Source of the DNA: a virus
IMG/VR virus record: IMGVR_UViG_3300037423_000600
Span: 32,001 to 96,000 of that record
Strand: one strand, 5' to 3'
DNA length: 64,000 nucleotides
Shown here: positions 5,629-8,667 of the stretch, one piece after another
Layout: the number at the start of each line of letters is the position of its first letter
How positions within the stretch are numbered: position 1 is the stretch's first letter
Position numbers and translations under genes: made by a program
The notes under the pieces: generated by a model
Seen by the model: the letters and a program-made list of their open reading frames with translations, nothing else
Told to the model about the DNA's origin: nothing
Database searches by the model: none

Positions 5629-5785
5629 GGGGTGGGGCTCCGGCCCCGCTTTTTATTTTCGGCGGGCGGGCACGAACACGTCACGATTCCGTTTCCTCAA
5701 ACAACAGGGTCTTAAGAATCCCTTTAGGCTTTATACTATAAATAGGCCCAAGGGAAAGGGCACTAAAACATTGGAGGTTTTACAT

Positions 5786-6022
5786 ATGAATTTGTCACTG
5801 GTGGTTCAACATTTGGTAGCACAAGAGAAGGCCAACGGCTCCGATATGGCGGCGGAGGCTTTAGGGAAATTGCTTGAGGAAACTTCGATTGTCTATTACG
5901 AGTACATGACCGAAGAAGAAATCGCCCAATACATTTTTGATGTCTACTTCGATGACCGCATCACTCATTTGCAGAATGGACTTAGCCGGACGGCGGGCGA
6001 GGTTACGATTGTCAGAAACTAA
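5786..6022 (+). CDS. hypothetical protein
   Basis: Promoter TATACT ~5732, RBS GGAGG, terminator 6028-6050. Confidence 0.75.
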   Translation: MNLSLVVQHLVAQEKANGSDMAAEALGKLLEETSIVYYEYMTEEEIAQYIFDVYFDDRITHLQNGLSRTAGEVTIVRN

Positions 6023-6181
6023 CGGCAGGCGGGGCTTCGGCTCCGCTTTTGCTTTACCCTAAACGGCAAGAGTAAGTAACGAACTCGCCCCAAGTTGTTT
6101 ACTCAAGTTGTCGGGCGGGGTCTATAATATAACTATAAGGGGTTCGGGACTCCTTAAACTTATTATTTTGGAGGAATGGAA

Positions 6182-6457
6182 ATGGATAACATGGAGGAAA
6201 CATTGGGATTGGTACTCACTTATTTTAAATCACTTCAATCTATCTTGGAATTGGCGGAAGGTAAAAAGGATTGGGAATTGGTCCAAACGGTTAGGGCTTC
6301 CTTGGAGGATATGGAGGTTGACTTGGGTTGGGATTACGGGGAATCGGATAAAACAGGCATCCAACAATGGCAAGGCGGAATGGACCGGGCGGAAGGGAAT
6401 TTCGGACATATTACGGAAATTCAAAACTTATCTCAAAAATTAAAGGCCGGGGAATAA
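6182..6457 (+). CDS. small acidic early protein; coding strand has only one lone G
   Basis: Promoter TATAAT ~6123, RBS GGAGG, terminator 6446-6476. Confidence 0.8.
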   Translation: MDNMEETLGLVLTYFKSLQSILELAEGKKDWELVQTVRASLEDMEVDLGWDYGESDKTGIQQWQGGMDRAEGNFGHITEIQNLSQKLKAGE

Positions 6458-6604
6458 TCCCGGTCTTTTTCTTTTCCTTCTATTATATAAGACACGACCT
6501 CGCCGGGCGGGGACAGGATTCTACAAATTACACAAGCCTTTAGGGCTATGGTATTATTTAAACATGGGCAGGGAACCCATAAACAACACATTGGAGGTAT
6601 TACG

Positions 6605-6877
6605 ATGCAGGGAACTATGGACAAATTGATTGAGGACCAACGCGAGTATGGAAAGGGTCTTATGACACGGGAGGAAAAATTGAGTCCCAATCCGATTCAA
6701 ACTAAATACAACGGGCGGAAGGTTTGGGTGGACGGCTACGGCTGGGGAACCATCAAAGGCGGATATCTTAACGACAGGCATCATATTTTCATCTTCTCGG
6801 CTTTTCATATCCACTTCGCTTCAGGTATCAAAACTACCATCTACGCCGCAAACATTCGGAAAATGGCTCGGGCTTAA
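6605..6877 (+). CDS. hypothetical protein
   Basis: Promoter TGGTATTAT ~6549, RBS GGAGG. Confidence 0.7.
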   Translation: MQGTMDKLIEDQREYGKGLMTREEKLSPNPIQTKYNGRKVWVDGYGWGTIKGGYLNDRHHIFIFSAFHIHFASGIKTTIYAANIRKMARA

Positions 6878-6904
6878 TGCCCGGGTCTTACTCGGAGGGG
6901 AACC

Positions 6905-7048
6905 ATGGGACGACCGGAATCCAGACCACAACCACAAGATACCGACTTTGATGAAATGGACGGGACAGGAATTAGACGTTGGGAACTCCTTCTCGGCATC
7001 ACGACTATCCTTATCGCCAGCTATACCTTAATCGCCCTCTATCCTTGA
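6905..7048 (+). CDS. small membrane protein (47 aa)
   Basis: RBS GGAGGGG; hydrophobic C-terminus LLLGITTILIASYTLIAL; terminator follows. Confidence 0.55.
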   Translation: MGRPESRPQPQDTDFDEMDGTGIRRWELLLGITTILIASYTLIALYP

Positions 7049-7394
7049 GGGCTTTTTTCTTACACCGAACCAAGTAATTTTCACGACACCTTTCCATAGA
7101 TTATACGCTCGGGGTATATTATAACTATCCCGGGAGGGCTTTACCAAAGGCTCTTATCGGGAACCTCCAATACATCGGCCCGGCAGGGATTCCCGACATT
7201 AACCGATTCGCGGTTACTGTACCCGCCGGGCCACAATTTTGTGCCAAATTCATAGACATCTAGTATCCCTCCCTTGCCCTCCGATTTTTGTATCCCCCAG
7301 AAGAAGCCCTAGTAGCTATACATGCCTCGTTCTCAAAAGATTTCACGAATGTAAAACTTTACAAGACTAAAGGATTCAAACCGTAAAACCTATA

Positions 7395-7424
7395 TTATAC
7401 CATAAAACAGGCCCTTCGGTCAAG
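7395..7424 (-). promoter_or_regulatory. leftward sigmaA-type promoter
   Basis: Minus strand reads TTGACC-N18-TATAAT with extended -10 TG. Confidence 0.65.
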
Positions 7425-7587
7425 GAGTCTAGGCAATAAATTTTTTCTTTCACGGACAGGCAAGGCAATAAAAAACATTATTCAAAAAGGACTTCTCAAA
7501 AACCCTTATAAGGCATATAATAGGTAATAGGTAAGGCGGGCCGGGCGGGAATCCACCCCTTACACTAACCTATTGGAGGGAATACAA

Positions 7588-8430
7588 ATGGCAAAAACAA
7601 ACGGCAAGGCAAACGGCGGGAAAAAGGTAACACCAAAAAAGGTAACACCAAAAAAGGTAACACTCCCGGAGGCTCTCAAATTACCGGAAACGGCGGGCCC
7701 GGAGGCAAACGGGGAATACTTCTACTTAACGGATACGGAGGCAAAAACGGCGGGCGGGACGGCTTTAGGCACACCGGAGGACTTGGCTAAGGCTATCCAA
7801 CAAACGGAGGAGGAAAAGGAAAAGGCTATCAAATTTATTTACGGGCCGGGCGGCCAAACATGGTCCATTCTTCCAATCCTCTTGGACCGGAAGGTTAATC
7901 CTTTCTTGGATACCCACTTCCCCATTACGGCCGGGCGGGTAACACAACAAACACTGGAGGAATGGAAAAAGGCTAACGGCACCATTACCATCATACCTAT
8001 CCAAGGCGGGGAATGGACATTTTACACGGTGGCAATACTTCCGGCCAAACAAACCACAATCAAACCTTGGGAATTAAAATGGGGACGGGAAACAGGCAAT
8101 TTCCTTCAATACACGGAATACAAGGAGGCGGAAAAAGGCATCATGGTAACACCCCAACAATACCTCATTACTAACATTACAACTAACCGGGGAAAGGCTA
8201 TCAATCAGGCTAAGGCATTGGGTAAGGTATTCAAATTGGATACCTCCACGGTGGAGGATAAGGCTAAGGTAACTTACACCATCACACCGGAAGGAAAAAT
8301 CCTACAGGCTAACAAAAATAACGGATTGGACAAAAAGGAATATAACTCTATCTCGGATATTATCGGACGGCAGGCAACCAAACATTATACATGGAATAAC
8401 TTGGTCAAGGCTTATACAGGCCGGGCTTAA
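7588..8430 (+). CDS. early protein of unknown function (280 aa); coding strand has no lone G
   Basis: Promoter TATAAT ~7516, RBS GGAGGG, KKVTP tandem repeat at N-terminus, terminator 8433-8470. Confidence 0.85.
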   Translation: MAKTNGKANGGKKVTPKKVTPKKVTLPEALKLPETAGPEANGEYFYLTDTEAKTAGGTALGTPEDLAKAIQQTEEEKEKAIKFIYGPGGQTWSILPILLDRKVNPFLDTHFPITAGRVTQQTLEEWKKANGTITIIPIQGGEWTFYTVAILPAKQTTIKPWELKWGRETGNFLQYTEYKEAEKGIMVTPQQYLITNITTNRGKAINQAKALGKVFKLDTSTVEDKAKVTYTITPEGKILQANKNNGLDKKEYNSISDIIGRQATKHYTWNNLVKAYTGRA

Positions 8431-8432
8431 TC

Positions 8433-8470
8433 CAAAAAAAGGAAATTCTCTTCGGGGAATTTCCTTTTTT
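8433..8470 (+). terminator. intrinsic terminator, possibly bidirectional
   Basis: AAAAAAGGAAATTCTC-TTCG-GGGAATTTCCTTTTTT. Confidence 0.8.
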
Positions 8471-8667
8471 CTATTTCCACCCACCCACCTTCAAATTTTT
8501 GGAAATTCTACCCGTGCAAGTATATACTCATATGCGAAAAGGATATTCACGAAACCCTCGCTTCTGACACTTCCAGACCTTGTAAAACAATGGACGAGCT
8601 GGGGCGGAGGGGCTATAATTATAAGTGATATAACTCTTATATGAGGCGCAAGGGGAGGGCAACCACC

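Follow-up and report, generated by a model that had tools for sequence, protein, structure and literature searches.

Two transcription units of a phage genome avoid isolated guanines on the sense strand

Why should a whole transcription unit of a phage, from its promoter to its terminator, carry guanine almost exclusively in runs of two or more? The question is raised by the segment 6111-6490 on the + strand of the 64,000-nt stretch of phage DNA analysed here (the window, to which all positions refer unless a contig is named). We call this unit U1. A second unit on the same strand, U2 (7428-8513), contains the gene of a 280-aa protein and poses the same question. Throughout, an isolated G is a guanine without a G neighbour on either side, i.e. 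the central base of any of the nine HGH trinucleotides. A preliminary description of U1 had counted about 42 G-runs of at least two and a lone G at position 6320, and this count was borne out: U1 has 42 such runs and one isolated G. In U2, G-run counting gave 0 isolated G in 1086 nt (~105 G-runs). For comparison, 6717 of the 11239 G-runs in the whole window are isolated (60%). Simple arithmetic on the U1 and whole-window counts yields a binomial probability of ~5e-16 for at most one isolated G among 43 runs. The other bases inside U1 behave ordinarily, C being isolated in 83%, A in 56% and T in 55% of cases. The unit is bounded by isolated Gs at 6110 and 6491. Its single internal exception lies in GTT GAC (Val-Asp) and could be removed by one synonymous change, the minimum achievable for the encoded 91-aa protein being 0.

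The phage genome is a single contig of 105,101 bp. At least its first 100 nt recur from 104,974, ~127 nt before the end, such that the map is circular. Within these 105,101 bp U1 and U2 are the only long stretches without isolated G. No isolated-C-free stretch was found anywhere in the same genome, which shows that only the sense strand is affected. The genes flanking U1 had been described as having ordinary lone Gs. This holds for the gene at 5786-6022, where 29 of 45 runs are isolated; the gene at 6605-6877 is with 14 of 37 runs below the usual value, and far from the rule. The preliminary description had also assigned the rule to individual transcription units rather than to a regional mutation bias. 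We come to the same view, as the genes between U1 and U2 keep their isolated Gs and the G content of the units is undiminished; the former point removes regional bias from the candidate explanations. The gene between the two units, when delimited as 6548-6874, has about half of the isolated Gs expected (15 observed, 29 expected), which may be a weak form of the bias seen in U1 and U2. Its homologue is found at 2299-2595 of a related contig, L001, described below.

U1 is a real protein-coding unit. Reading of the sequence places its promoter at 6100-6128, with a -35-like TACTCA (6100-6105), a 17-nt spacer and a perfect -10 box TATAAT (6123-6128). According to a hairpin scan, the predicted transcript begins with a stem-loop of 9 pairs (6136-6156), and comparable leader hairpins occur in U2 and in the units of L001 and of a further relative, L021. 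A Shine-Dalgarno motif GGAGG (6170-6174) lies 7 nt before the ATG at 6182, where the reading frame of the 91-aa acidic protein begins (6182-6457). Terminator and hairpin scans detected an intrinsic terminator with an 11-pair stem and a T tract (6442-6478), which itself obeys the rule. All of these features are on the + strand. The frequencies of G at the three codon positions of the frame (0.39, 0.16 and 0.32) are typical of coding DNA, and most G-runs begin at codon position 3, as they do in U2 and its homologues. The frame is thus supported by its ribosome binding site and by a coding-type G phase that matches U2. An alternative frame in U1 is open over 111 codons; open frames are cheap in this unit because the rule forbids TGA and TAG codons are rare. 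Similarly, a 2-4 fold enrichment of GGAGG in the units is automatic, since the rule turns every GAG into a GGAGG.

The 91-aa protein has a pI of 4.37, with 18 Asp and Glu against 8 Lys and Arg residues. It lacks Cys, and Asp or Glu follows every Met. Part of its acidity and Trp content can be put down to the coding rule, which favours both. AlphaFold, run without an alignment, predicts three helices in a generic three-helix bundle (pLDDT 69). No homologue was found in 5.8 billion proteins or in IMG/VR, and Pfam and PHROGs returned no match.

U2 is organised in a similar order on the + strand. Sequence reading and a motif search identified the promoter TTCTCA-17-TATAAT (7493-7521), the -10/start region of which, CATATAATAGG, is conserved in L001 and L021. 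The open reading frame that follows (7588-8430) encodes the 280-aa protein, which is basic with a pI of 9.5. Downstream of it a terminator-like hairpin with a T tract (8440-8471), read by eye and absent from the consensus scan, again obeys the rule. In U2 and in L001 the rule extends 90-135 nt upstream of the -10 box, covering 4-5 GG runs. Rule-abiding sequence at this place calls for either an upstream start site or a reader that acts at the DNA level, and the stretch upstream of both promoters may hold a second start site. Further upstream, at ~150-250 nt from the promoter of the family gene, a near-identical 30-nt non-coding element, GAATGTAAAACTTTAC-A/T-AGACTAAAGGA, is present at 7352-7380 of the window and at 3050-3080 of L021, two phages the TerL proteins of which are only 63% identical. 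It may function as an operator or as a small-RNA element. L021 additionally carries three GAATGTCAAC repeats immediately before the promoter of its family gene.

The 280-aa protein consists of a disordered N-terminal tail rich in Lys, Thr and Pro and a beta-rich core that is confidently modelled. Searches of Pfam, PHROGs, PADLOC and the PDB sequences gave no match, nor did phage GenBank records searched with two queries. The model found no fold match with Foldseek against PDB and BFVD, with VIA (wide) or in the ESM Atlas, the best VIA Z value being 3.0. Among 1.84 billion proteins the family comprises ~19 clusters at 50% identity. In the window, L001, L021 and L011 alike, its gene immediately precedes that of TerL, i.e. 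it has the position expected of a small terminase gene. No TerS structure was among the fold matches of the 280-aa protein, and U2 has a promoter and a terminator of its own.

To see how the rule behaves in relatives, family DNA was read in four other contigs, and most members were checked as protein. L001 (IMG/VR, 36.9 kb), whose family protein is 43% identical to the 280-aa protein of the window, has no isolated G among the 139 runs of a 1263-nt stretch. The same holds for the 72 runs of L021 (IMG/VR, 12.7 kb), which encodes P0014. Few exceptions are present in L011 (IMG/VR, 7.5 kb; 59% identity to P0013), with 2 of 60 runs isolated, and in L022 (metagenome, partial; 64% identity to P0010), with 4 of ~50. 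These contigs were found by hand-made pattern scans, the first scans for related loci having given none. A scan of genome contigs returned one chance match and no prophage. The contigs that carry enough context, four with the window included, form one lineage, their TerL proteins being 63-81% identical. At the protein level, 14 homologues (P0002-P0004, P0006-P0014, P0017 and P0018) have Gly, Ala, Val, Asp or Glu after Met in 68 of 68 cases and not a single Cys; the distant members P0016, P0019 and P0020 break the Met rule. The rule holds in homologues of 25-45% protein identity from phages of 38-50% GC. In L022 the family homologue begins abruptly at ~2963 (oriented) after sequence rich in isolated G, with its N-terminal part missing, which points to either a fused gene or a chimeric assembly.

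A scan for HGH, proposed in the preliminary description, was carried out on four units pooled (3.5 kb). It counted 3 occurrences where ~381 were expected, such that all nine trinucleotides are banned; the 3 exceptions are all NGA. In the same pool, isolated G on the bottom strand (DCD trinucleotides) is at or above expectation. Considering five units from three phages, the rule spans the region from about the -10 box to the terminator. Chance and artefact can be dismissed, as the counts are far beyond chance and independent contigs from IMG/VR and metagenomes show the rule again.

The coding sequences reveal how the rule is obeyed. The units have not lost guanine: the G content is 26.8% in U1, 22.5% in U2 and 22-27% over all units, compared to 27% in the genome, and GG runs reach 100-110 per kb in the units against 72 in the genome (1.4-1.5 times). 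Synonymous resampling with the codon usage of the genome predicts 26.9 ± 3.7 isolated G for the 91-aa protein, where 1 is observed, and 81.8 ± 6.7 for the 280-aa protein, where 0 are observed. Codon choice was only one part of the adaptation. A coding sequence free of isolated G exists for both real proteins, whereas shuffled sequences of equal composition need a minimum of 3 (91 aa) and 8 (280 aa), with means of 7.9 and 15.9, and ordinary neighbour proteins have minima of 7-10. As G is retained, GG runs are enriched and the amino-acid order is adapted, the rule is the product of selection and not of decay: it has shaped both the codon choice and the amino-acid order of the two units. A design for unstructured mRNA was rejected, the folding energies lying less than 1 SD from a GC-matched background. 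Shape of the double helix or binding of SASP was rejected by reasoning, since a property of the duplex would constrain both strands.

U1 and U2 had been suspected to form a pair, and we find support for this. On the + strand of the entire genome CTCA-N17-TATAAT occurs at U1 and at U2 (7495) only, and acidic GG-only open reading frames lie beside the homologue of the 280-aa gene in two relatives. U1 is hence the co-regulated partner of U2. The -35 boxes of U1, U2 and the L001 and L021 units all lack the canonical G of TTGACA. In L001 a 62-aa acidic reading frame is located downstream of the family gene, inside the GG-only stretch of the latter. In L021 a separate second GG-only unit (2363-2864) contains a 129-aa acidic reading frame, whose sole full-length homologue is P0024, which also complies with the Met rule. 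Together with the 91-aa frame, a small acidic GG-only reading frame is thus found beside the family gene in three phages. Co-occurrence of the two genes across relatives, which had been put forward as a check, is accordingly seen for the arrangement; the three acidic proteins themselves are not demonstrably homologous. A relationship between the 91-aa protein and the 129-aa protein of L021 was not accepted at E values of 0.015 (BLASTP) and 0.01 (hhalign), a level at which the unrelated 91-aa and 280-aa proteins score as well (E 0.012). That the latter two are unrelated, as stated earlier for this locus, agrees with our comparison: the only BLASTP hit covers 25 residues and is noise among rule-coded proteins. 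Since unrelated GG-only proteins also reach E values of ~0.01, the coding rule inflates similarity.

Several further elements surround the pair. The ORF-poor gap of 380 nt between the units (7050-7430) contains two strong sigma-70-like sites on the minus strand, one at 7423-7394 (TTGACC-18-TATAAT, TG-extended) and one at 7147-7118, from which antisense or small RNAs could be transcribed towards U1. The word CCGGGCGG has 19 copies in the window, ~4 being expected, and 18 of the 19 are on the + strand. Five copies fall within 6385-7938 (6385, 6503, 7541, 7846 and 7931), the leader of U2 included, and the related CGGGCGGGG sits inside the promoter spacer of U1. The flanking genes use a different promoter type, with CTTTAGG followed ~8 nt later by a -10-like box (5723-5750 and 6538-6560). 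A CTTTAG-type element is also present in L001 (3019), upstream of its GG-only unit.

The phage genome encodes QueE-like, FolE and QueC proteins, a DpdA-like transglycosylase that matches phrog_887 (3e-46), HldE-like enzymes and GT9 transferases. The 7-deazaguanine genes are found at 17.3-26.0 kb of the genome (1297-10022 of L002), ~6-14 kb before the window, interleaved with genes for an HldE-like kinase and nucleotidyltransferase, a GT9-like transferase and a small endonuclease and with a dCMP-deaminase-like gene. This mixture suggests a sugar-bearing deazaguanine. We compared two relatives that possess DpdA. G002 (106.8 kb; TerL 60% and DpdA 43-54% identical) has no GG-only stretch on either strand, and no member of the 280-aa family was found in this record, which is estimated to be 70% complete. 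In Bacillus phage BCD7 (DpdA 31% identical) the family is absent, and both strands are free of GG-only stretches. It is thus the family gene, and not DpdA as such, that the rule follows. Two genes in relatives appear split: DpdA of G002 matches as two pieces ~870 nt apart (104403-106157), and TerL of L011 (3649-6433, minus strand) is interrupted by the gene of a 266-aa endonuclease. Both look like insertions of the intron or intein type.

What could impose such a rule? A constraint that is specific for one strand, bounded by the unit and indifferent to the template points to mRNA or to the exposed non-template strand as substrate. As both neighbours of the banned base must be non-G, no one-sided motif explains the ban. 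GA, GGC, cleavage after G, primase sites and palindromic restriction sites were rejected as targets because every G-run keeps its first and its last G. We tentatively favour an immunity in cis, by which U1 and U2 would escape a factor that reads isolated G in single-stranded nucleic acid; this reader is probably the 280-aa protein. In both units selection has rewritten the leader, the codons, the amino-acid order and the terminator such that the sense strand, i.e. the mRNA and the non-template DNA, is rid of isolated G. According to the model, this would make the units invisible to a factor that recognises isolated G, more likely in mRNA than in a displaced DNA strand. Nucleases, base-modifying enzymes and repressing binders would all qualify as such a factor; the most likely candidate is the basic protein of the 280-aa family, or else a component that invariably accompanies it. 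RNAs with isolated G would be attacked, with the messages of the 280-aa protein and of its acidic partner staying expressible. In this picture, the acidic 91-aa protein would regulate or inhibit the basic 280-aa protein. A difficulty of the model is the survival of the other messages of the phage, which are full of isolated G. The rule-abiding sequence upstream of the -10 boxes of U2 and L001 and the three distant family members that break the Met rule also speak against it. To our knowledge there is no enzyme with a two-sided specificity for a G that has no G neighbour.

An alternative would be a footprint of DpdA itself: only isolated G would be modified, to a 7-deazaguanine that is perhaps glycosylated, and the non-template strand of U1 and U2 would be kept unmodifiable for the host RNA polymerase on the incoming DNA, making them pre-early genes. 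Enzymes of the TGT family indeed read both neighbours of their target G (U33-G34-U35 in tRNA). The QueE, FolE, QueC, DpdA-like, HldE-like and GT9 genes of the phage are in line with this idea, as is the DpdA of the L001 phage, which is 92% identical, and the avoidance of the canonical G in the -35 boxes. We nonetheless consider it unlikely. The template strand, which is the one that the polymerase reads, is unconstrained, and the two-strand avoidance expected of a DpdA motif was not seen, bottom-strand isolated G being undepleted. G002 and BCD7 possess DpdA without any GG-only stretch, and the remaining genes of the phage are all transcribed despite their isolated Gs. Moreover, the published phage DpdA motifs, GA in one case and GA plus GGC in the other, are one-sided and would survive in GGA (PMC10484667, PMC7544227). 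U1 and U2 might instead be counter-defence or takeover genes, expressed under a G-directed RNA or ssDNA effector that is not their own, such as a host defence system or RNase, the target of which their messages would have lost in evolution. The restriction of the rule to the sense strand would fit, and so would the 5' hairpins and strong terminators, which suggest stabilised mRNAs. The 280-aa proteins of the window and of G001 moreover share only 44% identity, where the median of the shared proteins is 58%. A precedent for context-dependent attack exists in the G-directed ADP-ribosylation of ssDNA by DarT1, which never modifies both of two adjacent Gs and is subject to neighbour effects (PMC11543638). 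Against such a foreign effector stands that same-lineage relatives without the family carry no immune gene. Also, we know of no host RNase or toxin that spares every G with a G neighbour, and we regard this explanation as improbable.

A targeted hypermutation would not need a reader at all: isolated G would be converted, e.g. to A, in a process linked to transcription, and the rule would represent the mutational equilibrium. By reasoning, a change from isolated G to A never creates a stop codon, such that reading frames would stay open. A is abundant in the units (30-35%, compared to 26.5%), and the 280-aa family diverges faster than its neighbours. Nevertheless, this process appears very improbable, since the G content is not lowered, GG runs are even denser than in the genome and the amino acids are ordered such that no isolated G is needed. 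The rule would further have to be maintained at 25-45% identity and 38-50% GC, and the genes between the units are spared. We are not aware of any mutator with such a two-sided context.

Immunity in cis to a reader of isolated G has a known counterpart: for the endoribonuclease MazF it is established that messages without the target word are immune. As in the MazF-resistant ACA-less mRNAs, a whole transcript is depleted of a short word by codon choice, which keeps it translatable during the attack on other RNAs (PMC5408214, PMC9102682). In U1 and U2, however, the banned word amounts to one base and the nature of its two neighbours, corresponding to nine trinucleotides, the avoidance alters the protein sequence, and it occurs in nature and has been conserved within a phage lineage. 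Also, no MazF-like protein is present. The avoidance of restriction or modification motifs by phage genes, together with 7-deazaguanine modification by DpdA at GA or GGC (PMC7544227, PMC10484667), resembles the present case in its G-centred context, in the presence of genes for DpdA and preQ0 synthesis and in its confinement to particular genes. It differs in that the rule of U1 and U2 is one-stranded, spares GGA and GGC and is absent from two relatives with DpdA. No published description of an isolated-G rule of this kind was found in the literature searched.

Phage factors that discriminate by the bases of the DNA are familiar from T4, where Alc and endonuclease IV recognise cytosine DNA and thereby shut off the host and spare the phage. 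T4 protects its whole genome by modification, whereas here two genes would be protected by their sequence; no sequence or fold similarity to Alc or endonuclease IV was found. For the 91-aa protein, barstar with its enzyme barnase and the proteins Ocr and ArdA offer a comparison. Like these it is acidic (pI 4.4), predicted to be helical and co-regulated with a basic putative nucleic-acid binder. There is no sequence match to barstar, Ocr or ArdA, and the likeness is drawn from sequence and model. The arrangement expected of an enzyme and its inhibitor, i.e. two co-regulated genes for a basic and a small acidic protein that recur together, was found in three phages.

A nearest-neighbour rule on a single base that applies to one strand, covers whole units and dictates protein sequence is the fingerprint of a molecular reader. 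It is conceivable, though we hold it with considerable doubt, that the 280-aa family is a new nucleic-acid enzyme or reader that recognises a guanine only between two non-G neighbours, acting on single-stranded RNA or on a displaced DNA strand in host shut-off or expression switching, with the messages of U1 and U2 as the only immune ones. The identity of the reader could yield a new base- and context-specific tool for RNA or ssDNA. The rule is directly searchable in any sequence collection, and strand-specific scans for missing short words are possibly a general route to hidden conflicts between phages and cells. For the phages themselves, the reader could explain how viruses with 7-deazaguanine and sporulation-type genes program their earliest or most protected genes.
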